Part shown: positions 2,548 to 64,000 of the stretch, piece after piece
Layout: each line of letters starts with the position of its first letter
Position numbering within the stretch: position 1 is the stretch's first letter
Assembly (NCBI GenBank): GCA_046563655.1
Contig: CM102288.1
Span: 4,216,001 to 4,280,000 of the forward strand
Length of the DNA: 64,000 nucleotides
Direction: 5' to 3'
Origin: Yuukianura sp. NJ FZ-2021
Taxonomy: Eukaryota
Notes under the pieces: model-generated
Databases searched by the model: none
Told to the model about the DNA's origin: nothing
Seen by the model: the letters and a program-made list of their open reading frames with translations, nothing else
Program-made: the position numbers and the translations under genes

Positions 2548-4175
2548 CTACCTTGAGGATTCAGGCAAGTCATCTGGGTCACTCACTTGACCTCTGGCTG
2601 CTCGTCGCCAAGTCATTTCTGGCTCAGTGATTTGTCGGTAGTGAGCCTTCTTCTCTTCCAAAGTGGGAGCTGAAGAGCCTTTCCCAGTCTTCCGCTTCTT
2701 CTTGTCATCTTGTTCGTTGTAAGCCTCGTTCAGTTCCATGTTCTCTTCAAACAGGTCATGTTCATACCCTAAACAAAACAATCATCACATTAACTTTAAT
2801 AATAACTTTGGAAGAGGTCAGAGGTCAAACTGTTCCTTTTTTACATAGATTAGTTTTATAGTGTCCAGTCAGGCAACGCGGCAGCTTTCTTTTCCTTCTT
2901 TTTTTTTTAAATTAGATTTTGTAGGAGTAGCACTTACTCTTCCCTCCATTCCAATGAACTTGGTTTTAATTAGACTAGTTTAAATTTTCAATTAATTAAC
3001 TTTTAGTTGAGTTTCCTCTTTGAGAAGACTGAAATTCTCCGGTTTTTGCCTTTTCTTGTCAAAACACAATTTTCCTCCATATCATATTCCTACTTAGGGT
3101 CAAAGGTCAAACTTATTTATAATATAGTTACTGTGTAGTGGGTTTTTATTTATTAATTAGCAAAACTTATACTTAATTAATTCCAGTTTGATTCAGGGTA
3201 TTCTGTTATGCTTTTGTAACTCGCTTCCGATTTAGCTTTACTTTTGTGTGGGTATTTTTTAATATTAGAGTTTAGAATGGGCGTTCCTGGTTGGTTGAAT
3301 TAAAACAATGGGTGGAAATGATTAAATTAAATGTCCATTAACTTATTGTTAATTGATTAATTGTGTTTACTTACTTTCAATCATAGGGAGGTTGTCTGGA
3401 TGGAGGTCCTTGGTTTGTTCCAACCAATCACGACACAGTTCCGGTTCAGAGAGGTTGAACAGTGCTCGAGCCTTGAGCAATTTTGCTTTGAGACTGCGCG
3501 GGTTGAGGTCAAGGGCTTGGTTGAGGTCCTCAATGGCTTTGGAGGGGATCCTGGATCGAATCCAGGTCAGAGCTCTGTTGGTATAGAGACAAGGACTGTC
3601 TTTCACTAGGTCAATTGCCTGGAACATCACAAGGTCATGAAAAGGTCAAAGGTCATCAATTCAAAGAACTAGTTATCCAGAACCTTGCTGTAGTTGTCCA
3701 GTGCTTGGGCGTATTCGCGCCGTTTGAATGCGTCGTTTCCTTTGGCACGGAATGCATCCGCTTTCTCCTTGCATTCGCGTCTTTGGCGCGCTCTTTCGGC
3801 GGCATCTTTTTCAACCATTCGCATAAACGCTTCTTGGTCCACAGAATCTCCAGCAGCACATTCCGAAGGATCGGAGGTCACTGGCTTGTTGATGACAGTT
3901 CGGTCACTTGTTACCTTTGTAGCCGATTCCCCATCAGGGTCACCTCTATCCCCTAAAAACAGAAATTGAAATGTTACTGATTCGTTCTGTATTTTTAAAA
4001 TGGAAATTGACCTTTGACCTTTATCGCACAGGAGAATGTCAGCTTGACGCAGTGCTTTTTCCTGTTCTTTTGAATCTTCTGATACAAGGCCTTCGACAAT
4101 TTTCGAAATTTCGTCAACTCGAGACAAGAAGTTCTCAAATTCAGGATCACTTGGATTTTTCAAAATGGCGTCCAT
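2548..4175 (-). CDS. TTC12: TTC12-like TPR protein (N-terminal plus TPR region only, about 300 aa)
   Basis: EFENFLSRVDEI, DRTVINK, QEAFMRMVEKDAAERA followed by three TPRs (GNDAFKRREYAQAL...LYTNRAL...LKAKLLKARAL); 4 exons in consistent phase. Confidence 0.75.
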
Positions 4176-4635
4176 TTTTGAAAAATCAACACGTTTTTTG
4201 ACAAATTTCAAAAATAGCAACTTTCTGCTAACGAAAACTTTACGCATTTATTGTGAACTTCAAAGCTTCTGTTTGCTTGTTTGTTCAATTTAGCAGGAAA
4301 CCATAGCAACCGTGTTTTTTGAATTTTAAAATATTCCATGATGCTGAAAATCAGTATTTTTCCATAATGTAGGAAGAAAAAAAAAGACAGAGTTTGTTGC
4401 AAAAACTGACCTCTGACCTTGTTGCCTGTCTTGATAAAGTCTTGCATGAAAATGACCTTCAAAAATTGAGGCGGACAACACGATATCAATTTTTCAAAAG
4501 CGTCACACATCCAGTTTCCACAAAGAATTTCTCAAGATCACGTCGCAGTTTCTTCCAAACTTTCTACCGAAGCGCAACTAAATAATCTAAAATTTCACTT
4601 CCAAATTTTACATTTCTAGAAGAAACATTTTGAAA

Positions 4636-6015
4636 ATGGCAAACTGGGTACCGACTCAAGTGATTCGTCCAACGGAAGAGCAAGCACTTCCAGACGAACT
4701 TACTTTCGTTGACACTGGTTATGGCAAGGACTATGTCAAGCTGCTCCACATTCGTCGTGATGGTCAAAAGCATTACATCAAAGAACTCGAGGTCAACACC
4801 CAGTTGACCTTGGACTCCAAAAAGGTCAGCACAAAATCCTGACCTTTACTGTTTAAAAATTTGAAATTTTGAAAAAAAAGTTTAAAAAATTGATTTTTTT
4901 CGTTTAGGACTACTTGTTTGGCGACAACTCTGACATCGTGGCGACTGATTCACAGAAGAACACTGTCTATGTGATGGCCAAGAACCACGGTGTCAAGTCC
5001 CTGGAAGAATTTGGACTGTTGTTGTGTTCTCATTTCCTGTCCAAGTACCCCCATGTCAACAAGGTTCGCATATGCATAGAAGAACATCCTTGGGATCGAC
5101 TCGTCTCGGACGGAATTCCGCACAACCACGCCTTCATCTCCACTCCAGTCGCCGTCCGCTTCTCTACAGTCACTTGTCGACGCGGAGGTAACTTTTCTAA
5201 CACAAAAATTGCTAAAAAGTCAGTTTTTTTTTCTGAAATTGCGAAGTTTTTAGCTTCTGATGGATAAGTTGAATGTCGAAACTTTTTGCACAACGTTGAC
5301 TTTCCCAATGCATGCCAAGTTGTTTGTGATAAGAGATGGAGTAATATTGGTTTCATAAGTTAACCTCAGAGGTCAAGCGCACTGTAGCCAAAAGGCGTTG
5401 CTCCAGGTCACTCTACTTTCTGACCTTACGTCATTTTTTTTTCAGCTCTGCCTGAAATTGTTTCTGGGCTGAAGAATTTACGCGTGATGAAGACGACCCA
5501 AAGTGCTTTTGAGCATTTCATCCACGACGAATTTGCTACGCTGCCGGATACGCCGGATCGGATTTTCAGCACAATTGTGTACTCCAAATGGCACTATGGA
5601 ACTACGAATGGAGTCGACTATGATTTGGCCTGGTACAGTTTCATCCAAATTTCAAATTTTCATTTTCATAAAAACCGTTTTTGAATTGAGTTTTTGGTAA
5701 CTTTTGTTCAGGAATACTGTGCGTGACTGCATTCTGGATGCCTTTGCTGGTCCGCCTGACACTGGAGTCTTTTCACCCTCAGTGCAGAACACTCTGTACA
5801 TTGCCGAGAAGAACGTCCTGGAACGCATTCCGCAAATGGCCAAGATCGAAGTTGTTCTGCCGAACAAGCACTACTACCCAATTGACTTTTCAAAGTTTAG
5901 CAAAGTCGGACTGAGATCAAACGATGACGTGTTCCTACCAGGGGACAAACCAGCGGGCTCAATTTCTGCTGTCCTGGGACGAAAAAGTCATTTGAATTTG
6001 AGCGCTAAATACTAA
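4636..6015 (+). CDS. Uro: Uricase (urate oxidase)
   Basis: [52 protein letters not shown] and PNKHY are uricase signature motifs; 4 exons. Confidence 0.97.
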
Positions 6016-6237
6016 AGTCATTGGCCAACCTTTTGCGAACAAACTAAAAAATTGTGAATATTTTACTCGAAATAAGGTTGCCTAGACAACTGCCCCCTAC
6101 TTAGCCTCATGTAAAACCAAATCAACGAATAAACAACTCCTTTCTGACTTTGACTTGCGCACAGTCCGAAGTTTCCGGAAACGTTAAAAAGTTTGTCACA
6201 GAGTCCAAACTTTGCCGAGAGAGTAGAATTGTTTCTG

Positions 6238-7771
6238 ATGATGGAATTCGTGTCGTATGTCACGGTAGTAGTGACATGCTTGGTCGTCCTGGGTGGTGTC
6301 CAGGAGACTTACTGTACTGGCCTGGGGCAAAATTGTCATAGTGACCCCAGTGGGTGTGGAAGGGACGTGCCCAACAGTGAGTGTCCAGATATGGGTGCAG
6401 CCAGTTCCTGTGAATGTAAAAAGGGCTTTGTTCAAGCCGGGAGTGCTTGCGTGACGCCAGACCAAGTGAAGCCACCACCAGGCCCACCAGGACCCGGAAA
6501 ACCGACTTCAGGCCCAGGAGGACCAACACTCCAAACATTCGGCGGCTCATGCACTTCCAATGGTTAGTTTATTAGGAAACAACTTCATTACTTTACCAAT
6601 TTTAACTTTTTACCAATTTAACTTTTAATTTTTAAAAACTTTCTTAGACAATTGCATGACCCAAGGTGGTTTGAAGTGTGTGAATAAGAAGTGCGCATGT
6701 AATGGAGGACTGGATTGGATTGATTCCCGCTGCCGGAAGCCAGTAAGCGACAAGAAATGCACTCCCGGTGCTATCCGTAAGTTCAGAAATTAAGTTAATC
6801 CAAATTACAAAAGCTCTTTTCTGAAAAATGACGAGTGTTTTGTATGAATTTGTGAACTAGCGGACGATTGCACGGCAGAAGCTGTTCGCAACATGGAGTG
6901 TAACAATGCGACTCTCAAATGCCAATGTCCACCGCATATGTCTTTTTCCGTGGAGGACGACGCTTGTAAACTGAAGGCAGGAGAGAATTGCGTGATCAAA
7001 GTGGACAATGGAACGGATGTATACGAACATGACAATTGTGCCAGTCACCACTGCCAAGATCAGAAAACTGACCCCGATACTTATCAAAAATGTGAATGCA
7101 AAGATGTCAACAACATGAAACAGATTTGGTCTTCTGAGCCTGGAGAAAACTGCGTTCCTAACTTTTACGACGTCGAATGCAAAGGTTCCAAAACACTGCA
7201 TGTAAAAGGTCAAAGGTCAAATTCTTACAATATGATTTGATATAGATAAGTCCGACTGTCGCTGGCCATTGTTCAACACAAGTCGCAAGGGGCTGGTATG
7301 CAAAAATGGACGTTGCGCCTGTGAAGAAGGTTTGACGTTCTCCCATGGCTTCTGCGTCGTTGCCAAAGCATTGTACAACGAAATGTGTGATCCTCGTAAG
7401 TGACCTTGCCCGTGACCTTTAGCCTCTTTCCTGAAATCTTTTCGTTTTTAGGTGGAATAGATGTTACCTGTAAGACTGATAATTTGACGATGCTGTCGTG
7501 CAAAGACATTGGGAAAGGGTCCTATCGCTGCGTGTGTCTTCTGAAGGAAATTACGCGTGGTAAAGGCAAACGTACAATCACTTTATTCTGGAATCATGAC
7601 TCGAAAATTTGCGATTTGAAACCGAATGGGGAGAGATGCAATGGAGCCTACGAATGCAGAAGTGGATACTGCCGGGAGAAATGCATGACCTACGCCCCTG
7701 GTAAAGCCAAAGGTCACCTCACAACTGCAAGTCTCTTCACGATTTGTCTCACTCTGCTAAACATGTTCTAA
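6238..7771 (+). CDS. Cysteine-rich secreted or surface-anchored protein with EB/EGF-like modules and a Pro/Gly linker
   Basis: Hydrophobic N-terminus MMEFVSYVTVVVTCLVVLGGVQE, repeated CxC modules (CECKKGF, CQCPPHM, CVCLLK) and a hydrophobic C-terminal tail (LTTASLFTICLTLLNMF, possible GPI signal); several short introns. Confidence 0.7.
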
Positions 7772-7912
7772 CTTCCTAAAAGCATCACGCATAAATAACA
7801 TAAGAACATTTATACAAACATTTTAAAACATTTGAAGATTCTTTTTCGAAAAAGTTGAAGTAAATGGCGACATTTGTTAAATTAGTTGCGATTTTCGTTT
7901 AGTTTGTGCATG

Positions 7913-8886
7913 TTAATCTGCCTTTTCTCCCTCTTCTTCATGCGTGACGTTCACTCCATTTACTTTCTTGATGTGCGGAATTCTCTTGCCAATTTCTTTC
8001 CCAAAATCCTTTTCAGTTATTCCAGCAGCAGTCAAGAAACGCTCATGAACTGGACATCCTAAAAGTGAAACCACAATTAAACTTAATTGTAATTAAGCAA
8101 GTAGGTTAAAATATGCAATGAAGTATTTCCATGTTTGACCTGTGAGCACGAGTTCCTCCAATTTCGGAAGTTCAACCAATCGATTCACTTCGGACAACTC
8201 GCGAACCTTTAAAAAAGTCAAATTCGAAATTAACTTTTTAGTTAATCAAGTCAATTCCACAATTAAGTTAAATGACTTACGGCATTGCAGGCGACATAGA
8301 GTGCCCGTAGTTTTTTGCAAGACAAAACTCCTCTGGTGGGTTTGTCAATTTGATTGTACGACGCCCAAATTTCTTCAAGTGTCTCCGCACAAACTTCCTT
8401 CAAAAATTAGCAACAATTGACATTAGATTGTAAATCTGTTCAAAAGTTCAATTTTTAAAGTGAATGGAATTTCTTACGACGCCCTGTAGAGACTTGATCA
8501 AATTTCGTCCAACAGACAGGATTTTGAGAAACTTCAGTGAATTGAGATTGCTGATTTTGTCAATCATGTTCGTATTCAGAGACAGAAGTTCGCACTTTGG
8601 AAAAAGTGAAGTCGAACCATCCATTTTCCTAAAAAGAGTGAAAAAAGTGAGACTTTGACCTTTGACCTCTAAATTGACCTTACTCGATTGGTGGAATCCA
8701 CATTTGAAACTTGACTTCCGTTTGATCCGCAAGTTTCTTCCCTTCTTTGTCCTCCCACATCTTTGTGGCTTCCTTCAAAGAAATTCTTTGCTTTCCCGGG
8801 AGCTGATACGCCTAAATCAATTAAAAATTAATCAATTAATCACAACTAACTAGACTTTTCAATTTAAAATCAATGTGTCTTACCAT
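7913..8886 (-). CDS. DNAL1: Axonemal dynein light chain 1 (LRR protein)
   Basis: An ATG-only first coding exon, then [14 protein letters not shown]...WIPPIEKMDG...[38 protein letters not shown]...[12 protein letters not shown]...[13 protein letters not shown], assembled from short exons. Confidence 0.85.
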
Positions 8887-9074
8887 TATGAGTAATCGTT
8901 GAATACGATGCACTAAACGAAGAAAAACTCAAAGTTTTTTGATTGAACTTGTCAACCCACCTTGAAAAAACTTTTGCAAATTGAAAAAAAGCGAGACTTT
9001 TAGCAGAATCACAACAAAAAAGAAGAATGTTTTATTTTACGAAATGTTGTCAAAAGTTTGTTTTGAGTTGGTTG

Positions 9075-9889
9075 TCATGACGACAAAGAAGATGACTGCT
9101 TCAAGTACATGGGTCCTTTGCGTTTCCGGAAGTGATCGTTCTTGACTTTTTCTGGAAGGAAACTTAGAAGTGTTTTGACTAGAAGAGAAAATCCAGATTG
9201 AGGACAGGAGCTGAATTCGGTAGCACAAAGGCCACGGTCATCGCCCAGGCCAATGACGATGGCTCGCTTGTACTCCAATGGCAAATCAACTAAGGTTCCA
9301 CTGTGAAAACAAAGCAATTTAAAGTTACAATTCTTAAGTTAAGTCCATAACTGTAAAAATAACCTGAAGATGCTGTAGATTTCATGAACTTTGGGTGGTA
9401 AGACTTGAAAAGCAGCGTGGGCATGACATAGAGCCAACAACTGGCAGTTAGCACCTAGGTCCTTGGCGTCCATCCAGAAGAAAAGTGAGTCCAGAGAGGA
9501 GGGAGGCTGGACAAAGTTTGAAAAGAGGCGGGGTGAGGCTGTCAACATGTCGTCACTGTTGCCCAGAACGTATTTCTTGGAGGGAATGCCAAAGAAGTAG
9601 CCAAAGGGAGACGTAATAACGCCAAAGAACAAGATGAACAGCAGCCCAACACTGATGGCCACACTCACAACTCCAGCGATTGGTCGAATGAACAAATTGG
9701 CAATGTCGTACGGAACGCCTGCAATTTCAAACCAAAATTCAAGGGTTAAAAAATAATTGTGGGAGTTAGTACATGAGTTAACTTACCCATTTTCATTCCC
9801 ATTGACATTGGCATGACATACTGTGACTTTCCTTTCACTTCGGTCGCACTGTAGCACAAAAGAACCAGGAACAACCAAACGCAGCCCAT
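9075..9889 (-). CDS. Uncharacterised protein with signal peptide, one TM segment and Cys-containing C-terminal domain
   Basis: Exon 1 MGCVWLFLVLLCYSATEVKG..., exon 2 hydrophobic AGVVSVAISVGLLFILFFGVI and CQLLALCHAH, exon 3 LCATEFSSCP; canonical splice sites. Confidence 0.6.
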
Positions 9890-10359
9890 TTTTTTTGAAA
9901 GTTTTACGAAATCCGTCCTGCAGAAAAAAACTGGACAGACGCAGTTATACAGTGGATAAAAGATTCAAACTTTTAGAAAAATGGTGGAACATGGTTAGGA
10001 AGTTCAACTTAAGCGGAAGCTCTCTAGAATGAGAAAGTGAAATGAATATGTTGAAGGGCCCTTGACCCTTGAAAACGAACTGTATTTGTGTGTTTCATCA
10101 CTAAATGAGCATTTAATGATCCTTGAACTTCACAACTTTCAAATAACTCCAAAATAGAAATCTCAAAATAAGAAAAGTTTGTCTCCATTTCGAAGTCACT
10201 CTGCCTCTCTTCTTTCACTCTATTTCGCATTCCGCATTAAACGCAACGACTAACAATTAAATTTCGAATATTTAAAAATGAAACGTCCCAAAACTTGCAT
10301 CGGTCTTACACTTCGTCTTGAACGTTCAGCGTTTGGATTGTGTTTGTCCTTGCGATGTT

Positions 10360-13750: not shown

Positions 13751-13980
13751 ACTGAAATGTAATTCGTAAGTAGACTTCCACAAAATATAGAATAAAATCT
13801 CAATTCTCTTCCAGAAACTGCTGTCATGGTGGTATCCAAAGCTAGTAACAACTTTAAAATTTAGTTACAACAATCTCCTAAAAGTTAAAATTTTCATTTT
13901 CAAACACTTTTTAGTGACTATGGACGTATGTTTAAAAGTTGATTATAGTAGTAGCCTTATACTTGGATGCGATTTGAGTA

Positions 13981-15969
13981 ATGAGTTTGAAGGAGAAGTT
14001 GGTGGACATTTTGAAGTTTATATTTGTGGCGGTGGTTGTGCTGATTGGAATGGTGTTCAACAAACGACTGCTCATTGGTGTGGGCAAAGTCACTTCTCTC
14101 TACCCTACGATTGTGTACAACTTCAACCTGTTCCTGGTCGTCGTGTTGTCATTGCCCTTCAGTGTCCACAAAAAGTTGTCCTTTGGACTTCCTGGGCCAC
14201 CGAGGGAGACACCGGCGACAGCAGACGAAGAACTAGTTCAAGAAGAAGATGTTGACGAACTCGTGAGTAACTGGGGAACGCTCAACGCCATCCAGCAGCC
14301 AGTCGCTTCTTCCTTGGCAGATATAACAACGGTACGACAACTAAAAATTATACAATTATGACATAATTGTATAAAACCAATATTCTAACTATAATGCTAC
14401 GTTTATAATGCTACGTTTTGTTTTGAATTTTAGCCTCAAGTGATTGAATTGTACGGATATACGTGTGAAACGCACAAAGTTCGGACAGAAGATGGATACA
14501 TACTAACGATGCATCGAATCCCGCATGGCAGGGGTCAAGGGTCAACGGTTGAAAGTCGTCGTCCAGTCGTTTTTATGCAGCATGGCCTCTTCGCTTCCTC
14601 CTTTGAATGGTTCATGAACTCTCCAGACAAACTTTTGGGTAACGCCATCACATTTTGAAAGAAAAACTTTTGTTTAACTTTGACTTGTGATTTTAAGGTC
14701 TGCAATTGGTGGAAGAAGGGTATGACGTTTGGTTTGGAAACATGCGTGGAAATACATACTCCCGAGAACATGTCACCCTCTCCCCAAAAACTTCCGAATT
14801 TTGGCAATTCAGGTGACAGTTTTTGAAAATGTGAAAAGTTGTAAATTTTGAAATTTTGATTTTGAGCAGCGTGCATGAGATGGGGAAATACGACCTTCCG
14901 GCGGAAATCGATCATGTGCTGGCCATAACTGGAGTCGAACAGATCCGCTACATTGGCTACTCCATGGGCAGCTCCATGTTCTGGATGTAAAAATAGTTTA
15001 GTTGTAGAAATATTAAGTTTAGAATAAGACATTGTTATGTTCTTAGCATGATGTCGCTTCGACCAGAGTACAATGAAAAAGTCAAGGTCATCATAGCACT
15101 GGCTCCTGTCGTTTACATCAACAATGTCAAGGGATTCCCTAAGCTCCTCTTTGCCCCATTTAGGAATCAGTTAGCCGTAAGTGATTTCCTAAGTTCAATT
15201 TGTTTTTCAAGTTCAAAAAATGTTGAAATGTTGAAAATCTTGAAAATTTCAGTTGCTGATTGACGTGTTCTTCCATAGTGAATGTATGCCACCGTTTCTT
15301 CTCAAGATTTGCAACTTTATTTTTTCCCACCTCAGTTCAAATCGCTTTGTGGCAGAAGCGTTTTGTGCAAACGTTAATTTCTTCTACCCAGGATGGGATT
15401 TGGCACAAACACAAATCGTAGTAACCAAAAAAAGTTCAGTTTTTGACTTTTCTAATACAGGTTTTCCTAAAATATTTTTGAAACGGACTTTTTAGAAGCA
15501 GCTTCCATTGTTCTACAGTCACACGCCTGCCCCCACTTCCGCCCGAACCCTGGTCCACATGGGCCAGTTGATGATGAAGGGAGTGTTTGCACAGTACGAC
15601 TGGGGAGTTACCAAGAATCTGGAAGTGTACGGTCAGCCAACACCCCCGAAGTACTTTCTATCTCGAACTAAAGTCCCAGTCGCTCTCATCTACGGCCTCA
15701 ACGACGCTGTTGTTGAACCTTCAGTAATTCAAAACAAAAATTATCACATCACATTTTGTACCACAGAATTCGAAAAGTTAAACTGATTCAAAATATTTTA
15801 CGTTTTCCAGGAAGTCCAGCGTTTGGCAGCAGAACTTCCGAATGTTATTTCCAATCGAGCAGTGAATTTCCCGCTCTGGAACCATTTTGACTTTCACTTG
15901 GCCAAAGACGTCAACATCCTTCTCAACGCTCCACTCATCCAAATACTCTCCAAGTTCAAATCGGACTAA
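13981..15969 (+). CDS. Acid lipase family member (lipase 3/LIPA-like, alpha/beta hydrolase)
   Basis: [50 protein letters not shown], nucleophile elbow YIGYSMG, Asp in GLNDAVV and His in NHFDF. Confidence 0.92.
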
Positions 15970-21999: not shown

Positions 22000-22063
22000 T
22001 TTCTAACTCTCTTACAGAATGCTATTAAATTGTTTCTAATTTAACTTTTACTCAACTTTTGAT

Positions 22064-25000
22064 TCAACAGTAAGGACAGATTTGTCTTTTGAGTTGATCT
22101 AATACAAACGTTTTAGTGTCAACTTCCCATTGCCTGGAATTGAGAACCATGAGGTAGGGATTTTTAGCAGGATTTCCACCTTCTCGCAATTGAAGTGTCA
22201 TTGGTTGTGGCTGCAGCTTTTCCGTGGCAACTCCAGGCATCTAGAGTAATTAATTCATAATTAATCTGCATATCTTAAGTATCTTATATCTTAAGTTGTT
22301 TCAAATGGCTTACTTGACCCAGTGGAACCAATATTTCTCCCATGAAGTCATTGGCAGACAGGAGGTCAAAGTCTTTGATTGTGAAGCGAACGATGACATT
22401 CGTCCATGACTCCAGTCCAATCTTGTCCCAGTAGAATTCAAACGTTTCTCCAAAAGTGGGGTTGAGAGTGTGCTTGTGTGTCTTTGTTTTTCGGATTGAC
22501 CCCACAGTGTGACCTTCCACCAACAACTCAATTTCTACGAATGGGTCACTGGAACCAGATCTAACTTTGGAACAAACGTCCCAAAATGGGGAAGGGTGGT
22601 CCAGCGGCAGCAGATTCTTCCCTGAAATGACTTCGATTTGGAGTTTCCGTTCCACAGCAAATATTCGAAGTCGAAGTGTTCCGTACAATCCTCGACCTTT
22701 CAACTCCTAAAGTTAATTTCAAAGTTAAAAGTTATTGGTCATGCATAGTAAGTCAGAATTGTACTGACCAATTGTTCTGCAGCTCTATCATGGAAGTATT
22801 CTGCAATGAGCTGTTCAGAAGGTAGGACAAAGAGATGAAGAAGTTTTTGTGCAAACTTGAACTGTGGTAATTCAAGATGGTTGTCGTTGAGTCCTTCTCC
22901 ATTTCCTTTCAAGTACTCAACCAATAGCGGCACAAGATTCTGGAAATGGCCAAAGTACACTTGTTGGGCCACTGTTGATGTGACAGGCACATGGACCACA
23001 GCTTCCACCAGTTCGTCGCATGTGACCAACCAAATGACGTGGACCAATCGGACAAAGTTTGGATGAAGCAAGTATTGATGGAGGACACTTAGGTTGTTTT
23101 CCAAGTAAGTGACGAGTGGACCTAAGGGGTCATCGGATCCTGGATTGGATTCAAAGAAAAGAACAACGTCGTTCCATGCAGCCCGAATCTGAAATAAAAA
23201 ACGTTATAAACGTTTTTGGAAAAAGACAATTTTTTGTTCAAAAGTCTTACTTCTGGTCTGATACGATGAGCGATTCCGGCCATGATGATTTGAATTTCTG
23301 ATTCAATTTCATTCACTGCCGTAATAATGGACATGACGATTCTTCTGTGACAAGTATCCAGTGTTTCTGTTTTGTCACCGACAGACTGTTTGAGTCCTTC
23401 CAGAAGAGTGTCCATCAATAACTCGGTCGGCATCTTGCGAACGGTTTCCTGGACGTAGTGAATGTTGTTGAGTGAAGTACAAAGTCGTTCCGAAATGTCA
23501 AATTGCCCCACGGTGTCAAAATACCTTCACAACAAAGTTGACATTTCAATTGATGAATTGACAAATGATTAATTAATACTGCCAAAGTACTGAATACCCC
23601 TCTCTGTCTATCTTCCTTCTCTTGAGTTTTGCATACAAGATTGAAATGTAGGTCATGACCTCCAGTAGAAACATGTTGATGACCGAGTTCTCTGACGGAT
23701 CTGGCCAGTTCAACTCTTTAGCAAAGTTGGCCAGTTGATGAAAGACAAAGACAGTTTCCAGTGCAGAGTGGCTGATGAACTTCTTCCCATCAACGTCAAT
23801 CTCATCAGAGTCAATTGATACGGAGATCATTTGATGAGCCTTGATGAAAGCAAATCCCAGCCACAAGATGAGCACTGGACGAAACCACTCGTGGAAAGTG
23901 TCTAGATGGGGATAGAACTTGCGCATTCCGAGACTTTGGGCAAATACTTGATCCTGGAAGTAGACGAAGCGATGTGTCTCGGCATAAAGTTCAAAGAAAC
24001 AGACGCAGAGGGCCTTGTGTTCTGGACTTATGCGCAGAAGAATCTTGCGTTGGGCATCGTTGTCTCCAATTTCCTTGTCAAGTCCAGCAGTAGCTCCTTC
24101 GATGTCATTTACAACTGCCTTCTGGAATTCATCGTACAACAGAGGCAAGTAGTCCACGTTCCCTTCCATTGCAAAAACTCCATGCAGTGACTTTTGACCT
24201 TCGCTCAGTTTCCGGTTCACCACGCCCATCACCTATAACATTATAAAAAATTCGAATTTCAAAGTTTTGCAACTTTATATGTCGTGTTTTCTTATACTTG
24301 CGCAAGCCCACAAATGACTTGAGCGTGAGTTTGGTCCGGAGGTCCACGAACGAATTCCTTTCTTGTTTCTTGATACCACTGCTGGATTCCGAATCGGAGT
24401 GAAACTTTGACTTCAGTGTCAACTGCCTCCACTTGGTCCGTCGCTCCCATTCGATTCAGAATACTTTGAACATGACGAATTGTTCCGAGGGCTTGGTCCA
24501 CATTGGCCCGTTTTTCGTGAAAGTGGTTCCGGAGGACAAGATATGGGCCCTGGAGTGTCTTGAGAAGAGAAGACAGCATTTCTGTTCTGTCACAATGGTC
24601 TACCTTCCCTTGAACAGATTCTGGAGACCATCCTTCAAACTTTTGCATAGAACAATCCAGTTCCTTCAGTTCTGTTCCATGGATCTCCAAGTGACGTTTG
24701 GCATAAGCGTTGAACCGGATGATAGCCTGTAAGGAGCAGAAAAATGCACATTGACCTTGACCTTGTGTTTCCATATTCTTCAACTGACCTGAGAAGCTTC
24801 GCTGAGTCCAGTTTGGAGCCCATATTGGAAAAGTAAGCAACTAGCGGCTGCTGGAATCGTACTGTCCCAGGGTTCCCCTGCCACTGACTTCTTCTTCGCT
24901 TCAACGTCCAAAACGTAATCCCAAAGTTTTTCTAAAACGACGCGTGGATGGGCTTCCGGAGTCTGAAAATAACAATTTTGCAATTAGAATTCGCGAAAAT

Positions 25001-43600: not shown

Positions 43601-44635
43601 AAAAAAATATATTTTTGGAACGTTTTAAAAAATTCTAAAACTCTGCACTTGGAATGCCATTGTCTAAACAAAATTTGAACAAAAAGAGAATCAACATTCG
43701 ATTCAACCTGCAGGATTTAACTTTTCAGCTTACAAAACACACCTAGCACGAAGATTCTTTAAGTAAAGCTGGCGTTTAACTTGAACTTTAACTTAAACCT
43801 TTGAACAAACAATTAAATTAAACACACAATTAAATCTGTGTTTAAATACACAATTAAATAAGTACCAAATTAAAATCAAATCGTGTTTAACTAACCACAC
43901 ATCACACAGCAAACAATGAAATTAAAAAAACACATTGTCTTCTGCCCTATTTTCCACAAGAGCAAATCCACGATCCCACCTTATTCTCTACTTCCCAAAT
44001 TACTTAAAATGTAATAAAATATTATAAATATCATATAAAATAAAAATATATTTTACTAACCTGGAATACTGAAGTGAAGTATTTTCATTGGCTGAGTCGA
44101 AGAATGATTCAGATCCATCAGCCAAGCACTCGTAGTTCTCCTCCTTGGATCTACACAAGACTGGGGACGCATAAGTTGGCTCGTGTTTGTGACGAATGGA
44201 GGCGGAATTAGTGTTTGAGAGAGGCATCGTTCCACACTTGTCGCTTTCGTCAGCCCCCGGGGGGTTCTGGGGATGGTGGCCCATGCCTCCTGCCTCCCCC
44301 TGAATGCCGTTGACCTTTGACCTCCCAGGGGAAGTACCTAGTAAGAATTGAGCTTTCTTCCCGCCTTCAAGCGGAGTCGACGAGGTCTGGACGGTGACTG
44401 AAGAGTTGTTGAGCAGAGGGGAGCCTGGAGAAGTGAGAGGAGTGCTCAAGTTGGCGGTGGGACTGGTGGGGCTGCTGTTGAAGTTATTTTTGGCAGAAGG
44501 TTGTTGTGGAGTCCCACTTCCAAAATAATTAAACTTTTCATTGTTATTGTTGTTGTTGAACCTTGATGGATGAGGATTATTGTCATCTTTGAACGTGTGT
44601 CGAGTAGAGTCAGCAGAAGAGTTGGATAAATTCAT
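37612..44635 (-). CDS. nuf: Rab11 family-interacting protein 3/4 (nuclear fallout-like)
   Basis: Long coiled coil ([12 protein letters not shown]), [10 protein letters not shown] and the C-terminal Rab11-binding domain [26 protein letters not shown]. The start at 44635 is inferred; probable 5' UTR exons extend to about 47640. Confidence 0.85.
41632..41940. repeat. Two diverged tandem copies of a 120-140 bp unit ending in a GTCY microsatellite (DINE-1/Helentron-like relic)
   Basis: GCTCATTTG...TTTCCAAGAAAGTGTGAAC...CTGTCCGTCCG occurs at about 41640-41771 and 41834-41940. Confidence 0.5.
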
Positions 44636-45647: not shown

Positions 45648-48600
45648 TCATGAGGTACATGATGTACGTGATCTTTGACCTGTGTGGATTCATCTGCATT
45701 TTCGCATCTGCTTTCCACTTCCTGGAAGTAGAAATTAGGCAGAACGGAAATGCAAGTGGATCAGCGGAGGCCTTAAGGAGTTAAGTCCCTGCTGGACTTC
45801 CGGTTTCAAAGGCAGATGTTGAAGCGGCATATTCTGAACATGTTTTTCAAAATCTTGTTCAAAATGTTTTAAAAAGCATGTTTCACAACAGCCGCAAGTT
45901 CTGTGTTTTAGAAAAGAGTGTCAAGATTACAATTCCACCGAGACTTCCGATAACTCCGTGCTTTCAGAATTGTTGACGTAAGGAAGCAGATGCTTTTCTG
46001 GCACCTGACCCTTAACTTAAGGAACCTTAGGAAGCTAAGGGCTCTTGGCTCTAACACAGAGTCAAGGGAGGATTAAGGGCCTCTGCTTCCAAACTTCACT
46101 TCAACTGGAACTGAAACTACGATTCCACTCATGTGGGGGGAGTTTTTAGAAAAGATGCAGAGCGTGGAATAGTGGAATCTGGCAGAAAGATCGGATTTCA
46201 TCATGAAATCGAACCTTCAATCGAAGTGCGATGGGTGGAAGTTTTAGAAAAAGCTTGAAAGTTAAAACGAATCAAGATGGTCCCAGGGATCAAATGTCGC
46301 GATTTTGAAGATGACGCCCACAATAGGCGCTGAGTGTTTTGGAAATCAGCTTTAAAACGAACCTGTTTCCTGTTACGGGTAAATTCAATAGAGTTTTAAA
46401 GTTAAAAACATAAAAGAATTGGAAAATGATTGTCTAATTCGATGTACCTGGAAGGATATGGAATGATAAACTTCGCGCAGTGCAGACTTCACTTCGTGCT
46501 TCCAAGGTTCTGGACAAGGTTATAGATGACACCAAGTCAAAAGTAAACTCCAAGGTTCAACACCTGAAAAAGAAATGAAAATGAAAGTTAAATTACAACT
46601 TCTATCAACCGCAGTTTTGCGACTCATCGGGTCCATTATAAAACAATCCTGCAAACACGGTATTTAGCAGCGTGACCTAGGGCAAGAGTCAAGGACGTTT
46701 AGTAGACGATTTTCTAACATAACATATACATAACTGGGGTGTGAAGTCCCTAAAATGATATTATTGACATAAGCAATTCAACGATAAGATTAGCAACAAA
46801 AACACATTAAAAACGACAGGTTTTAGGACACTAGATTTCGTTTTCCGCTAGAACACGAAACTTCATTTGTCATTTCGACATTTAAGTTACTCCATTTACC
46901 TCAAACTTCACGTTCGTAGGTCAAGGTCAATTATTTAGATTCACGGTCCCGCTTAAAGGTCGCTCTGGCATCCAACGTTTTCCACGTCCAAACCTAATAG
47001 ACAATGAGATTCTTGAATTGAATCTGCTGTCTAAATCTGGAAGTGTCTGCAGTCTTCGTTATCGTTTGTAGCAATTCGAAAACTAAGGCTGCGGCCCTCA
47101 GGATTGTTGACACGAAAGGCCAGTACTTCCTTCACTGAAAACAGCTACCGAGGTCGTTTATATCCTGACCTTTACGAGGTTGGTCCACAGCTTACTAAAG
47201 GCCACGGTGTCCAAAAAGATAAAAGGAGCTCACACTAAGGTCACAGTTACTGAATTCGCCAACTTGTTGGAGTTAAGGCTTAAGGGTACAGTAAGTTTCG
47301 TATCACAGCTCCTCGTTATATCTATAAAAGCAAAAAAATAACAGTAAAACGACGGAATTTCTCACTTACGAATCTGTGAAACTGAAGAGTCTACTTACCT
47401 AAGGTTAGGGAGAATCAGAATGTGTCAAAGTTAATAAGAAAAGAACAATGAATTTACCTTGATTACTGTTGGACTCACCTGGTGTAAGTGTAAATGGCTC
47501 TTTGCAATGCAACAGCACAGGTAGAATCTTCGTTCCTTCTTTTGTGTATTGTGTTTTGTGTAGTTGTTGGGTATCCACGTAAACCGTACCTCTCGGATCA
47601 AGGAACCAACCAGTGACGTCAGGCTTAAACGTCACACTTCTCTTCTGTTATTCTGTCCTTAGCCAAACAGGATTAATTAAAACTTAATCTAATAGCTTTT
47701 CACACCAAGAGTACTAACAATGTCAACAGTTAATTAATCCTAGATTTTAGAGGAAGCGGTTGTTCCAGGATGAAATGCTTCCTGGCTAAGGAATGATGAG
47801 CCAAAACGTCAACTGATCAAGTTAACGTTACTGTTTTTGAATTGAAATTTTTCCACTGCTTGTTGCTTATGCTTGCGTGTCAAATTCTGTCAAAAGGAAA
47901 GAGAGCATATCCTCAACAGTTAACCTAACAATAAACACTTCCATTGTAAATTGACAGTTTTAAATTGTTTAGAAAGCGAAGGTTAGGCAGTAACATCCAA
48001 CGTCAGGAATATTTGCAAACGTGCTCTGCATTCCGCTTTTGCAATTTTTTTTGCAAACTAAACTGCAGACTCTGTAGCATCTAGTGTAGTGTTCTGGGGA
48101 TCCCCATCATCCCCCGACGATGAAGATGACTTCGTTTTAGCTTTACTGATTCGAAGTACAGGAGTTTTAGATGTTGTCGTGAATTGGCTTTAAATTGAAC
48201 ACAATTAAATCCCAAGGTTAACTCTGTACAACGTGCCGCCAACTTAACTAATAAGTGGGACGCTTGCTTTGCCGAAAAATTAGACTGAACAGTGCCATTT
48301 CTGCATAAAGGATTTATTATTATTACTTCAGTTGGTTCTTCAGGAAGGGAGGAGACCGCTGGGAATCCGGAATAACAAAAAATTTTGTAGCAGAATTTGT
48401 TTATATTTGTAATTCCAAACGTAATTTTACATTACATAATCTAATTTAAAAATCGGTTTTTGCACGCTATTGTTCTTAGACGTACTTTAGTTGGTGTAGT
48501 GGAGTATTTTGAGAGACGTTAAGCGTTCAAAAATGGCGCGAAAATATTTTTGAAAAATGAACTTGCTGTTGTTTTGTTTTTTTTACCTGTTATCTTACAC

Positions 48601-55067: not shown

Positions 55068-57186
55068 CATGAGTTACAGCCGCATTTTGACCCCCAGTTT
55101 CCAGGGTAGTCGCACACCTTAAATAGTTTCTATTAGAGAGTTTGCGCTAAGTAGTTACAAATTAGGGTTTGAAGAACCAAGGTACCTAAAAAAAAAACTA
55201 ATAGACTTTTTCTCCTTTATTCCTAAAAATCCGAATGACACCCTAACCTAACTGTGAATTTGACATTGTGCATTTGTTTTGTGTGAGTTGACCTGTTGAC
55301 CTCTTAGTGTCTAGCTTGTGACTGATTTGGCGTGACTGTTTACCTTTAAATTTTCCCTCTATTTTAAGGCCTTATGTGATACTTTCCAAGTCTAATTGGG
55401 ATGTGGACTAGGTTTCTAGAGCACCAAAGTCATCCTTCGCACTCTCTCACTCCCCACCTCCGTCCAACAATGTACCTAATAACAATGACTCGTGCCACAT
55501 CCAAATCATAACAATCACACCAATTACACTTAAGTTAACACGAATCGATCTAATTGTTAAACTGCAATTAATCCTAACAATAATCCAATATCTTTCTATT
55601 GACAAATGAGGATCCAATCCGTGACCCCCTTAACTCACTCGCCGCAAACTCCCTAAAGTAAAGATTTCAAAAACTTTCAAGATTTGATTAAAACTTTGTT
55701 GAAATTGAAAAGTTGGTGAAATTTTGGTTAAAAGTAGAGTTGGAGGGTGTGTGACCCTGAAATTATCCGATGATTGTGTGTGTGCGAATTTTGCAATTCG
55801 CAGATTTCAGAATTCTCTTCTATCCTCTAATGATAATAGGTGAGCTTGGTTTTCTACTTTTTTGCAATGACGTTTATTTTTTGCAATAAGTTGACATTGG
55901 CCTTGGAAAAAAGTAGGGAGAGAGAGAGTGAAGGAGGGAAGTGGGATACATAAGTGATTTGTGTGAATTTGCGAATTTGTTTTAATTTTTGCAAAAGTGA
56001 CTTCACCTGCTCGTGTCGTGTATTTTAATGTAGAATGTTTCGGAGTGACGTTAAGTAATGATTGGAGAATGACCCTGAGAAACTCCGTTGATCGCTTTTT
56101 TATCTAAGCTCTTTTTGGGGAAAAAATTGGCAAATTTGGATTTAGTCCATTTTTTGCACTGGAACGTGTCGGAAGCACCAAAAATTTCATTTGCAAAAAA
56201 CGTTGACCGTTGACCGCGTCCTCTCCAAAAAGTAATTTTAAAAAAGTTCCAGGAGAAAGAGACCACAAAAGACCTTGAGACTCGGCATTTTTTGCACAAC
56301 TTTTCATTTTGCCAAGTTTCGCGAATTTGATCCAAAAAAAATTGTCTGAAGCTTCTCTTTCCATCAACCCACGCTTTGGTTTTGGCGAATCAATTTTTTG
56401 GCGGGTAAGGTTGAAGGCCTTTTACTCTGCATTTTTGCAAACATTTTTTTGCAAACAAGTTGACCTTGCTACCCTCTTTTCTCTTCACGATTCTGTCTAG
56501 TACATGCGAATTCTTAGTAACAGCAGTCTCGTCGAATGGACTTGAAATAGACAAGCGCCAAGCACTACTATTAGTGCAAATTTGCGAAAATTTTCTCTTT
56601 GCACGAGACCTTGGGTTTTGCACTTTCCTGGCTTTGAAGTGCCAAACGACCAGTCTTTGGGGCCTCTTTTCTGCAACTTTTTCGCAATTTGATTCGGAGA
56701 GGACATTGACTCACTTTGTGGCCTTCAAACTCAAAATCCCTTTTTATCACAATTCAGGAGACCAACGTTACATTTTGGCATGGACGAGACGATAAAAAGA
56801 TTTTTTTTTGCACATTTTGGCAAGCTACACAGGAAGGTTAAAGCGATTTGGAAAATTATTGTCGCTTTTAGCCTCAAAATTTTTCCGTATCTTTTAATTT
56901 ACTTGCAGCCAAGTAGCATGTTGAAAAAGAATAAATTGACAATCGATTTTTAACTTATGCAAATTTCAATTTCAAAAACGCTAACATTTTTTGGAAATCA
57001 AATACAAAATTTTGAAATAACTGAAAAATCATGAACTTTTGTTTCATTTTCAGGTTTCGGTGAAGTATGCAAGTGAATGCCTTTGACGCCAAGGAGAAAT
57101 ACCGATAGAGACAAGAGCTAAAAATCCCGGGAGAATTTGTTGACCTGTGACCTTTTGACCTCTGAATTTTTGTTGTATCAAGTACA

Positions 57187-58598
57187 ATGGATTTGGAACC
57201 GAGTGAAGAATTCCCCATTTTGTTTGGCTTGCTAACAGAACGGAAGAAGGGGACGGTGCGGACACCTATTCGAGCTTTTCAGAACCCGTTTAGGCGCCCA
57301 ATTGCTCTTTTGGCACAAAATATTGCTGAACCGGATAGCTCAACATCGGAGGACTCCGGACAAGACAAAGTTGACGTTCCTAAACATGGAGTTGAGGGCA
57401 ATGACCCAGGTCAAGGTCAATCTCCACTACTCATTCTTCGTCTTAGCTCTACAGAAACGAATCGTCGATACTCAAGAAACAGGAGACAAACCAGTTGTGG
57501 GTCACATGAATTTCAAGTGCTCCAAAGAAGGCCACCACCGATTCGAAATTGTTCCTCCAAGGTAAGGTGTTCGGTATCGGTTAGAACTAGAAGATAACTA
57601 AATAGTTAAATATAAACATTATTTAAAGTTCTCTTACAATTGAATGTTATGGTTAACATTGTTAATTTGTTTAATTGTAGGTGATCTCGGAAGACGATGA
57701 TTGTGCTCCTTCCTCCACAACATCTGATGCTGAGGAAGTTCCATCAAAGCGGTCACGCTCCACTTCTGCAACACTGCCAAGTACAAGGACCAGTAATGGT
57801 GAATTGCCACATTTCGAATCAATGGTCTCAACCACGTCATCTTTCACAGTCTCTCGACCTGTAACCCCTCCGCCGCCAAATGGATCAGGTCAAGAAGACA
57901 ATGGTGCTCAAGGAGACGACTCAAACAATAATAGCAGCGGCAGTTCGTCGTCGTCAGTATTCTACTCTCCAGAGGCACGATACAATTGCAACTACTGTGA
58001 TCTCAAGTTTAAGCGACAGTTTCATCTCCTCCGGCACGTCGCCAGTCACGAAGAGAAACGAGAAGTTTGTTGTCACTGCAATACTGCTTTTTATAGAAAA
58101 GATAACCTACTTGTACATCAATCCAAGTGTCAACAACGACTAGGAGAACAAGGTCAAAGGCCACTGAGACCCAAACCGACGTTTAGAGCCGCTAGACCGC
58201 CGCCTCGAACTCTAGCGGATCTTCTAGATCGGGATTACGATGGCGGGCGCGCGGAGTGTGACGATAACCTGCTTGGTGGAAACAGCAACAGTCTCATTCA
58301 TCTGCCCAGTGGACTCGAAATTAGTGAAGTTCCGAATGAAACGGAAGGTCAACTGCCAAATAATCCAAATGTACTGCCGAACCGACGTCGAAAAGTTGTT
58401 GAAGAACCGGAAGTTTTAGTTGAGTCGGAAGAAGAAGAGCCGACTGAAGACAATGTCGTTGAAATTTTTCCTTGCGGTCACTGCCGAGAAGTTTTTGAAA
58501 CTTTTAGTCGTCTTTTGAAACACACTGCCTCAAGGCATATCAAAAATCCTACCGATGGTACTTTCCATTTTGAAATTGAAACGGTACTGGATGAGTAA
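57187..58598 (+). CDS. Zinc-finger protein (two C2H2 plus one C2HC finger)
   Basis: Exons 57187-57561 and 57681-58598 join in phase 0; fingers CNYCDLKFKRQFHLLRHVASH, CCHCNTAFYRKDNLLVHQSKC and CGHCREVFETFSRLLKHTASRH. Confidence 0.8.
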
Positions 58599-61500: not shown

Positions 61501-61894
61501 TCATGCTGAATCTGATGAGACCTGCTGTGGAAGGAAGTAATGACGGGTTCTGAGTCTCTGACTTTCTGCATTGTTGGTAGAGACAACAATGGAATACACA
61601 ATTGAAATGGATATAAAGCATATCAAAGGCACGCGTGACTCTGCACAACTACTACCACCAAGAATGTGATGATATTGAAGAACACAGAGGCCCCGAGGCT
61701 TCCTATGCCTACAAAAAATGAAAGTGGGTACGAAAAAGTAATTTTTATATGGATATCGCAGTCTAAATCTTCCATTTGTTTGGTTTCTTCCTAGTTTCAC
61801 AGTTTTTAATTGTTTTCGTGCCAGTCGATGACTTGAATTCAGCGTGGATTGTGCAGTTTTTAGTGTAGCTCTCCTGTGAGATAGCATATGTTTT

Positions 61895-64000
61895 ATGGAA
61901 AGGTGTCCTACTACTAATGGAGGACAAGAACAGGATGTGGATGGGACTCAGTTGTCTGCATCGACACAGGTAATCTTGTAATTGATTTCACTTTGGAAGT
62001 ACTTGTAATTTGACAATGTTAATTTATGTTTTTTCTGAAGATGAGACCCCCATTACATGACGCTGCCTTGTTGGGGGATGAAGGCAAAGTGAAGAGGCTA
62101 ATCGCATCGGGGAGTGATTTGAATGAATTGGATTTTGTAAGATTCGTAATTCTAATTGTAAATTAAAATTAGCAATAATTTCAGTAAAAAGTAAAAGTTT
62201 TGACTAACTTTTAAAAAAATTTCTCCAGGCGGGATGTACCTGTGTTCAGTTGGGGGCTGCTGCAGGTCACCACGACTTGGTTCAACTTCTGGTCGCTGCT
62301 GGAGCTTCAGTTACAAACAAAGATGTATCTGTAAGTTTTATGTTCAAAGCTAATTTAGGTAGTGCTGGCTAATGGACGTCGGATTTTTGTACTTTTTAAG
62401 CACGGGAATACTGCTCTACATGAAGCGTCGTGGAGAGGCTACTCAAAGCTAGTAAAATTTCTTTCAAACCCTCAAACGGTCAATGTACAAAACAAAGGTA
62501 AATTGTGAGGTCAAGTTTTCTGAAATTCCAGCCACTAAAACGTCAACTTTTGAATTTAGGCGGGTTCACACCAGCACATTTAGCAAGTCAAGCTGGCCAT
62601 AACCAATCCATTCGAGAACTGCTTCTTGCCGAAGCGGATCCAAATATTGCCAACACTTATGGCGACACTGCTCTCCACACAGCCGTCCGATACGGTCATG
62701 CGGGTGTTACCCGAATTTTGCTCAGCGCTCGTGCTGTTACAGATATCCGTAACAAGGTAATGAGACAAAGTACTATTTTAATCTACAACCGTTGCTAAAC
62801 GTTCATCTGAATTTTTTTTTTCATGCAGAATGGCGACACACCTCTTCACATTTCTTCTGCGATGGGTAGGAAAAAATTAACCAAAATCCTTCTGTCGGCT
62901 GGATGTCTCCCGCACGTCCAAAATAATCAAAACGAAAGTGCCTTGGATATCAGCATTCGAAAAGGATTTGAAGACGTCACTTCCGTACTTCAAAATCCAC
63001 CCGCCGTCGTTACTCCAATAGAAAGAGATGCAATACGAGCCTCAAAGTACAAATATGGAGCAGGTCCCAGTACTGCAGCGACGGTTACGAATTTAGCAAG
63101 TTCCAACAGAACTGGCAGTGGTGGAAGTCATCACGTCCTAGTCGAAGCCGGTCCACCGACAAGATCCAGTAAACGTTCAAATGAATCAAGTAAAACTGGA
63201 TCGAAGTCTAAAAGTACTTCGAGTATCAACCGTGGACAAGATGTGAGAATGTCAATTTCAAACAATACTGCCGCTGGAATTACGTCAAGCCGAACTACGC
63301 TGCAAGAAGTGCCAAAATGGTCTCCTTATGGATGCCATAACCAACCGAATCCTGGTGCGTTCCCGCCACCCAACATTGATTCTCTTCCGAGTGACCCACT
63401 GAGGACTGGAGAACTTTACTACTTAGACTTGGCTGGAAATATCCATAAGGTAAAGTTAATATAATTTAAAACATATTATTATAATAATTTAAAACACTAT
63501 CACAAAATAATATTAATACTTTAAACCGTAGCACTACGTCCTAGTTGTAAAATTGGAATGGGGTATGTAAAAAGTTGCTTCTTGGCAAAGTGGTATTGTT
63601 CCCGGCGTGTCTTTTACGAGACGCGGGTTCGAATCTCGCACGAGTTTCTGCTGATGATTACAATTTGCGGCTGATTATGGTTGATGAAACTTCAAGCCTG
63701 CTAAAAATTTCTTGTGTCTGAAGAAACTCGTGTTCGATTTTTATATTTACTTTTAAAAATCCAAATTTTAATAACCGTTTCTAAAAATTACTTTCTTGAA
63801 ATCTATTTTGGTTTTCAGGGTCCGATGGGCGTTTCCGAAGGATGCTACTGTGGCCCCACTGTACTTTTGAGTCAAGCCAGAAGTAGTCAGTCGTTGATGG
63901 GCCTGGATGGACCAGCACTGCAAGTATTTGAGGTCAAAGGTCAAGATGAAAGTAGTGTTGATAAACGAATGAACAAGAGGAGTCAACGGAATAGAGTGAG
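61895..64000 (+). CDS. ANKRD6: Ankyrin repeat domain protein 6 (Diversin/Diego-like), 3' incomplete
   Basis: Ankyrin repeats HGNTALHEASWRGYS, GFTPAHLASQAGHNQSIRELL, YGDTALHTAVRYGHAGVTRILL and NGDTPLHISSAMGRKKLTKILL, followed by GELYYLDLAGNIHKGP...CYC. Confidence 0.85.
63576..63647 (+). pseudogene. tRNA-like relic (pseudo-tRNA or tRNA-derived SINE head) in an ANKRD6 intron
   Basis: A box TGGCAAAGTGG, D stem GCAA/TTGT, T arm GCGGG-TTCGAAT-CTCGC; acceptor and anticodon stems do not pair properly. Confidence 0.6.

Follow-up and report, generated by a model that had tools for sequence, protein, structure and literature searches.

The 64-kb window analysed here (positions 4,216,001 to 4,280,000 of contig CM102288.1 of Yuukianura sp. 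NJ FZ-2021; all positions below are those of the window) is gene-dense, as judged from Pfam matches. Gene context was assigned by three-frame reading, Pfam, and spliced alignment. The ERCC6 exon is closest to springtail proteins (Orchesella, 63–66%; Allacma, 60%; other arthropods, 54–58%), and the six ERCC6 introns backed by spliced alignment are 71–95 nt in length. Neither a nuclear-receptor gene (Pfam) nor a structured RNA or tRNA gene was found in the window. Dispersed among these genes are 10 exact copies of AGGTCAnAGGTCA, identified by pattern search, i.e. two directly repeated AGGTCA half-sites separated by 1 nt (direct repeat 1, DR1; other spacers are designated accordingly), at a density of one per 6.4 kb (Table 1). 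DR1 is the element of the HNF4, RXR/USP, COUP-TF/Seven-up, PPAR-RXR, and TR2/TR4/HR78 receptors. All 10 sites had been listed in a first-pass annotation of this DNA, and each coordinate and strand was reproduced, as were the GGGTCA forms at 3097 and 14532, the DR0s at 24752, 46918, and 57408, and the DR2 at 55289; an extra DR2 was found at 57148. Seven perfect copies had been placed at 2.8–8.7 kb; six of these are perfect, and the remaining one, at 3097, is the variant form.

The copy number is far above chance, as had been claimed: no copy occurred in any of 100 dinucleotide shuffles, and only ~0.1 DR1 is expected even when the real abundance of the half-site is taken into account (112 x 112 / 128000). 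AGGTCA is present 112 times on the two strands and AGGTCAA 65 times, against 27 and 8.3, respectively, expected from base composition. Under a first-order Markov model, AGGTCA ranks first among all hexamers (31.7 expected, 3.5-fold), and in 300 block-wise Markov simulations, which kept the dinucleotide content of each 2-kb block, it appeared 31.5 ± 5.7 times with a maximum of 47. Its 18 one-mismatch neighbours range from 0.5- to 1.5-fold under the first-order model, none showing a comparable enrichment. When words of 11–14 nt in the window were ranked without any prior, the commonest ones proved to be parts of AGGTCAAAGGTCAA, the canonical DR1. Other 7-mer tandem duplications are not equally common, AGGTCA being duplicated at an offset of 7 nt 10 times and any unrelated word at most 4 times. 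Perfect DR1s also outnumber copies with one mismatch (10 versus 5, of which about one is expected by chance).

Perfect direct pairs comprise 10 DR1s, three DR0s, two DR2s, one DR5, and three DR6s, with DR3, DR4, DR7, and DR8 absent; in support of the first-pass annotation, the enrichment is real, extreme, and word-specific, and it has a DR1-type spacing preference. At spacings of 0–2 nt, 15 pairs are direct, 2 are inverted, and none is everted; within 60 nt the corresponding numbers are 39, 7, and 3, the direct count being inflated by clusters. Long-range coherence of orientation was not detected by a runs test performed by hand after tandem pairs had been merged (z about −0.8). The spacer base is A in 7 of the 10 DR1s. 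Beyond the motif itself the 10 copies have nothing in common, in agreement with the earlier remark that flanks are not shared, and the 83 hexamers without a perfect partner at offsets 6–8 have flanks carrying at most 0.21 bit per position, with two signals only: a base other than T ahead of the word and an A behind it.

The copies bear a signature of tandem duplication, for which the interpretation in the first-pass annotation had made no provision. Nine of the 10 perfect DR1s are perfect period-7 tracts of 14–17 nt with an exact 7 + 7 structure, and the tenth tract is 13 nt long; Tandem Repeats Finder reported 2.1–2.4 copies per heptamer array. Periods of 6 (three cases) and 8 (two cases) also occur. 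The window has 25 non-trivial period-7 tracts with a length of 14 nt or more. Of these, 13 contain GGTCA, against 0.03 in the simulations (n = 300, maximum 1), and 12 do not, against 4.4 simulated for all tracts. The excess is therefore ~400-fold for GGTCA, whereas 7-nt duplications in general are only mildly over expectation (12 versus about 4), a difference which implies either a motif-specific mechanism or selection on the product. Variant units were duplicated as matched pairs: (GGGTCAA)2 at 14532 and 10059 and (CGGTCAA)2 at 56201. The variable base in NGGTCAnNGGTCA agrees in 12 of 13 pairs (AA 10, GG 1, CC 1, and GA 1; permutation P = 0.013), so that only one mixed AGGTCA/GGGTCA pair stands against 10 AA pairs and one GG pair. 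These patterns point to an origin of the DR1 copies by tandem duplication of one heptamer. When all 112 hexamers were examined for degenerate partners (4–5 of 6 matches), 46 were found at offsets 6–8, compared with about 3 per control offset, indicating that many apparent single half-sites are decayed pairs; no asymmetry was observed between upstream (25) and downstream (21) partners. When all pairs of AGGTCA words separated by no more than 8 kb in the window were searched for an element-filled site, one weak pair emerged (10/14 matches, 6.4 kb apart).

At least 8 of the 10 perfect DR1s are non-coding, six being intronic and two located within 60–230 nt upstream of start codons; five of the intronic copies are in introns of 37–69 nt. 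Of the remaining two, one is probably coding, and for the copy at 63931 an intronic position is one of two alternatives. The first-pass annotation had placed three DR1s in coding exons of lipase, nuf, and ANKRD6 genes, a claim that was not confirmed: the nuf copy (38359) is in an intron, that at 63931 is ambiguous, and 44311 alone is probably coding, as the downstream part of its open frame is 64% identical to one relative; the part that holds this copy is low in complexity and poorly conserved. No lipase gene was found; the copies at 7207 and 8656 belong to introns of the EB-module gene (region 6848–7394) and the LRR gene (region 8478–8799), respectively, the latter gene presumably resembling axonemal dynein light chain. 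AGGTCA hexamers are modestly enriched in confidently coding DNA (6 versus 2.4–2.7 expected, 2.3-fold, P 0.03–0.04; 21 of 24 segments, 4,725 nt, three out-of-frame segments being excluded). Codon-usage scoring did not discriminate coding from non-coding DNA, since antisense frames scored as high as sense frames.

Table 1. Perfect DR1s, related repeats of the AGGTCA half-site, and splice donors containing it in the window
Feature	Position	Strand	Context and remarks
Perfect DR1, tract 2813–2827	2815..2827	+	TPR gene (− strand); antisense in ~606-nt intron 3 (3374 to 2769), ~45 nt from acceptor
GGGTCAAAGGTCA variant, period-7 tract 3098–3111	3097..3109	+	TPR gene, ~606-nt intron; antisense
Perfect DR1	3643..3655	+	TPR gene, 65-nt intron 2 (3683 to 3619); antisense; third half-site at 3632
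Perfect DR1	4008..4020	−	TPR gene, 5' end of putative 66-nt intron 1 (4018 to 3953); sense
Perfect DR1	4407..4419	−	460-nt divergent spacer between TPR ATG 4175 (−) and uricase ATG 4636 (+); extra half-site at 4453
Four half-sites, alternating orientation	4787..4847	+	Uricase exon 1/intron 1 boundary; the half-site at 4823 is a real donor
Splice donor AAG/GTCAGC	4825 (4820–4831)	+	Uricase; exon 1 ends ...DSKK, exon 2 begins DYLFGDNSD
Perfect DR1, 17-nt tract 7205–7221	7207..7219	+	37–49-nt intron between two cysteine-rich EB-module exons; sense
Perfect DR1, third half-site at 8675	8656..8668	−	LRR gene, 55-nt intron (8683 to 8629); sense
GGGTCAA-unit period-7 tract, 14 nt	10059..10072	−	Plus strand reads CCCTTGA twice
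(GGGTCAA)2	14532..14545	+	Same variant base in both halves
DR0 (AGGTCAAGGTCA)	24752..24763	−	Either coding or at a possible in-frame mini-intron of 36 nt
Splice donor CAG/GTCACA	34211 (34206–34217)	−	ERCC6; spliced alignment to springtail homologue
Perfect DR1	38359..38371	+	Rab11-FIP3 (nuf-like) gene, 69-nt intron (38406 to 38338); antisense, ~25 nt from acceptor
Perfect DR1	44311..44323	−	Open frame 44003–44638 (−), probably coding; ~30 codons upstream of block conserved in one relative
DR0	46918..46929	+	Non-coding; stops in all three plus-strand frames
DR2, period-8 tract 55287–55302	55289..55302	−	
(CGGTCAA)2.3	56201..56216	−	Same variant base in both halves
Three half-sites (DR2 then perfect DR1)	57141..57161	−	37–57 nt upstream of ATG 57198 (+ gene); 5' untranslated region or core promoter
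DR0	57408..57419	+	Coding exon; Gly-Gln-Gly-Gln, an in-frame 6-nt duplication
Perfect DR1	63931..63943	+	Ankyrin-repeat gene; either in frame or 7 nt past a possible GTATTT donor; window ends at 64000

The TPR gene carries four DR1s and one variant, all non-coding. Its second intron interrupts a TPR motif, with TPR_1 profile positions 1–26 ending exon 2 and exon 3 encoding a TPR (E = 2e-6). Intron 1, which would use the first AG/GT of the DR1 at 4008 as its donor, is putative because the frame is open throughout, and no homologues for spliced alignment of this gene were found among longer proteins. In the LRR gene, three half-sites occupy 18 of the 55 nt of the intron. A later exon of the gene starting at 57198 carries a C2H2 zinc finger.

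After merging, 94 sites are present in 64 kb (1.5 per kb), and their numbers per 2 kb are over-dispersed (chi-square 65.3, 31 degrees of freedom, P = 3e-4), bearing out the earlier impression that density differs between gene neighbourhoods. The stretches at positions 2–6 kb reach about 14 times the local expectation, whereas the blocks at 10–22 and 28–36 kb (NFS1, beta-catenin, RpL27, and ERCC6), which were picked after the counts were known, are near chance, with 12 sites in 20 kb compared with 82 in the other 44 kb. The statement that NFS1, arm (beta-catenin), RpL27, and ERCC6 contain no copies is true of perfect DR1s; single AGGTCA words are present there at about the chance level. A uniform neutral process would not be expected to leave out the introns and spacers of these genes. 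Motif density showed no relation to CpG observed/expected ratios, which served as a proxy for the methylation state against which mapping had been proposed (Spearman −0.11, P = 0.55).

Further copies of the motif exist in the same organism. Contigs from public sequencing runs were aligned to window positions 1–20000, and seven of them overlap at the DR1 at 7207, with a summed depth of 606, compared with a single-copy depth of ~230 nearby. Contig joints connect different DR1 sites, some contigs of the organism carry two DR1s 2–11 letters apart, and others have three or four half-sites in a row. The pile-up, the joints, and the paired DR1s together indicate that the motif is multi-copy in this organism. 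In a second organism, roughly 3% diverged, no DR1 change was found in the same region among the best-supported 40 of 1,089 differences and 12 of 275 indels. Separately, in contigs of runs X1 and X3, an insertion of 36 letters, largely palindromic, is accompanied by a second copy of the 10 nt at 4339–4348, which resembles a small insertion polymorphism that duplicated its target.

The interpretation that we prefer, with a probability of roughly 0.4, is that the DR1s are high-affinity candidate docking sites for a nuclear receptor and arose by duplication of half-sites. In the compact, short-intron genome of this springtail-like hexapod, the optimal receptor half-site word, (R)AGGTCA(A), would have multiplied, and single half-sites would have been turned into DR1s through tandem duplications of 6–8 nt, the products being retained because a receptor dimer gains a high-affinity docking site. 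The unit that counts would be two half-sites repeated directly, in most cases at a distance of 7 nt, i.e. the canonical DR1, and short introns and 5' regions would provide the regulatory space of a gene-dense genome, with sites placed there in a subset of genes. The enrichment, the spacing preference, the duplication signature, the non-coding location, the patchiness, and the further copies in the organism are observed; that the sites are bound by a receptor, and that binding accounts for their persistence, is what we infer. The product matches the optimal DR1 in every letter and avoids ~20 kb of neighbouring genes, as a docking site would; on these two grounds receptor docking was ranked first and a motif-specific tandem repeat second. 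Since roughly 1,170 heptamer repeat classes are possible by our estimate, it would be an unlikely coincidence for a random repeat to equal the best-known receptor dimer site. Also counted in favour of receptor docking were the spacing preference, the patchiness, the non-coding location, the excess of perfect over one-mismatch copies, and the presence in the window of 10 two-unit heptamer arrays but no three-unit array.

Several observations weigh against receptor docking. Selected sites should tolerate half-site variants such as GGGTCA and AGTTCA, but these are at 1.5- and 1.2-fold, respectively, compared with 3.5-fold for AGGTCA; an enrichment sharper than the known tolerance of receptors resembles copying more than convergent selection. 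The duplication signature counts in the same direction, as the agreement of the variable base implies that one heptamer was copied rather than that two half-sites evolved separately, and CGGTCA, one of the duplicated forms, is a poor receptor half-site. The distribution of degenerate partners is as expected from neutral birth and decay. Several copies abut splice sites in introns of 37–69 nt, an odd location for an enhancer, and the genes concerned (TPR, uricase, EB-module, LRR, Rab11-FIP3, zinc-finger, and ankyrin genes) have no evident common function. Finally, the density, with four DR1s and one variant within a single 2-kb gene, is far above that of any receptor regulon known to us.

Second in rank, and possible though in our estimation not probable, is a motif-specific short tandem repeat of neutral or selfish nature, (AAAGGTC)n, which would be the simple repeat favoured by this genome and whose likeness to a receptor site would be coincidental or secondary. 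Alternatively, the repeats may have been left by a process in which cutting or stalling at GGTCA leads to the duplication of 6–8 nt (filled staggered breaks, target-site duplications of excised elements, or slippage); in either form, two-copy arrays would be born perfect and would then decay. Such a process is consistent with the perfect period-7 tracts in 9 of 10 copies (13–17 nt), the 13 GGTCA tracts against 0.03 simulated, the matched variant pairs (P = 0.013), the continuous gradation of partners from perfect to degenerate, the lack of enrichment of one-mismatch hexamers, and the contig pile-up at 7207 with its rows of three or four half-sites. Comparable arrays exist elsewhere: a metagenome scan of 241 million records, a size at which arrays of any heptamer may turn up, gave at least 120 loci with two DR1s within 30 nt, a figure which, having no control motif, shows only that such arrays exist elsewhere. 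Pure (AGGTCAA)n arrays (n at least 4) are among the loci listed, on contigs with a GC content of 0.36–0.68. One set of metagenome contigs of another organism contains a dispersed repeat with a GGTCA-rich core (eight aligned loci: L012, L014, L040, L057, L065, L068, L109, and L112), in which a conserved 3' part of ~130 nt contains a core of six or seven GGTCA units with mixed spacings and stops at a shared boundary; inverted GAGCCCACCTG / CAGGTGGGCTC blocks also occur.

Set against a tandem repeat of this kind are the near-chance density over ~20 kb of other genes, introns and spacers included, and the match to the canonical DR1, which it leaves unexplained. Within the window, neither a filled site nor a terminal inverted repeat was found beside any half-site, and arrays of three or more heptamer units are absent, the latter being weak evidence since only ~1.2 are expected at a step ratio near 0.12. 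The metagenome matches, for their part, come without a control scan. To our knowledge, no mechanism is known to duplicate 7 nt at a single defined word, nor is any element known to target such a word.

A more speculative proposal, which we regard as rather unlikely, is that the genome may harbour a self-propagating system based on the receptor word, in which a receptor or another GGTCA-binding protein would act genome-wide as an architectural factor with tens of thousands of perfect DR1s, or an enzyme that cuts or stalls at GGTCA would duplicate its own site. At the density of the window, the genome total extrapolates to about 36,000 perfect DR1s in ~230 Mb. If either form of this proposal were true, it would represent a sequence drive of a kind not described in animals.

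An RNA-level role, in which the motif would help to define very short introns or tune their splicing, appears distinctly unlikely. Sense AGGUCA mimics a 5' splice site (AG/GU), and antisense UGACCU provides UGAC, which resembles a branch point, with pyrimidines next to it on the 3' side. In ERCC6 and uricase, one AGGTCA word each serves as a genuine donor (Table 1); both donors have C at intron position +3, a base seldom found there in most animals. The well-placed intronic DR1s are sense near the donor and antisense near the acceptor in six of six cases: those at 4008, 7207, and 8656 are at or within ~25 nt of a donor, and those at 3643, 38359, and 2815 are 25–60 nt from an acceptor. In addition, the inverted AGGTCA/TGACCT pairs at 4787–4847 of uricase are predicted to form two adjacent RNA hairpins, the second stem holding the donor (−26.5 kcal/mol, z = −5.2, 0/200 shuffles as stable). 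At 7396–7420 (+), a GTAAGT donor is immediately followed by antisense half-sites (TGACCT at 7401 and 7413, a DR6), which is an exception to the antisense-near-acceptor pattern.

Against a splicing function, GC content does not fall from exon to intron around AGGTCA as it does around AGGTAA, indicating that most copies are not donors, and copies are also located in intergenic DNA, 5' regions, and coding DNA. The six-of-six orientation pattern is explicable by a ban on AG near acceptors alone, five of the six well-supported ERCC6 introns splice without the motif, and 79 crudely predicted introns contain 2.2 hexamers per kb, compared with 1.75 per kb in the whole window. The crude short-intron predictor found three of the six known ERCC6 donors, and its 14 GTCA donors in 79 introns, being biased by the abundance of the word, were not used as evidence.

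We likewise give little credence to docking by an abundant non-receptor protein with an architectural, insulator, or chromosome-marking function, comparable with GAGA-factor or dosage-compensation motifs. The 1.5 merged sites per kb, the very sharp word specificity, the patchy, domain-like distribution, and the lack of a functional theme among the genes would all fit such a protein. However, no candidate protein is known, the flanks of single sites (n = 83) are nearly uninformative, receptor dimers have the DR1 geometry as their hallmark, and no link to CpG observed/expected was observed. Least probable is a decayed dispersed repeat family (miniature inverted-repeat transposable element (MITE), short interspersed element, or satellite) of which the core alone is left, which, despite the GGTCA-core element at the eight aligned loci of another organism, is largely refuted within the window: no flank column reaches 7/10 except at motif-adjacent positions, a repeat finder links just 38359 and 63931 (79% over 34 nt), no inverted termini are bracketed by half-site pairs, and old relics would not have retained 10 perfect cores against five with one mismatch.

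Among known systems, the short (GA)n elements to which GAGA factor or CLAMP binds, together with plant telo-boxes, resemble the motif of the window in being very short, slippage-prone words that are abundant in promoters and introns and dock a general factor, but their sequences and proteins differ, and a function of the window motif is a proposal. Sinha and Siggia reportedly proposed in 2005 that short tandem duplications are a main source of new binding sites in fly enhancers; there the excess of duplications is general, whereas here it is ~400-fold and concerns one word. The sequence is identical to the canonical DR1 element and is accompanied by DR0 and DR2 relatives, but the density in the window is orders of magnitude higher than in any DR1 regulon described, and the candidate sites are perfect rather than degenerate, marked by duplication, and in many cases placed in introns of 37–69 nt. 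The exact 13-mer serves as a PPAR/HNF4 probe in the portions of the receptor literature consulted, and the passages retrieved by full-text search mention only such receptor-biology uses of the motif, none of them concerning Collembola or a genome-wide enrichment in an invertebrate. HNF4alpha binding sites are spread by Alu repeats, according to the available part of one report (PMC3252374), and thus also represent a receptor DR-type motif brought to high copy number by copying instead of site-by-site evolution; those sites, however, ride in a 300-nt element with shared flanks, whereas the copies in the window share none. Heptanucleotide simple satellites and microsatellites, such as those of Drosophila virilis described in excerpts of another report (PMC6922343), likewise consist of head-to-tail 7-nt units with variants homogenized within an array, but the arrays in the window are almost all of two units, dispersed in genic euchromatin, and patchy, with no long array.

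Should the sites be bound, an animal genome with extraordinarily dense, perfect, duplication-born receptor sites would be at hand, offering a natural system for studying the origin of binding sites and the question of whether a receptor can serve as a general chromatin organizer. If they are not, a new mutational process would have copied one 7-nt word hundreds of times above chance, a caution against taking perfect consensus motifs as regulatory. In either case, most copies are intronic and not coding, and this organism does use AG/GTCA as a genuine splice donor.

A telomere-like origin was considered and rejected: TTAGG is not enriched in the window (94 versus ~138 expected), TTAGGTTAGG occurs once, and the matched variant pairs speak against a fixed template. 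Two other words are also over-represented in the window, namely the palindrome TTTGCAAA (36 versus 3.8 by composition) and AAAAGTT/AACTTTT (97 versus 19.5). A MITE-like foldback unrelated to the GGTCA motif is present at 54782–55067, with two 129-nt arms that are 96% complementary and a 28-nt loop.

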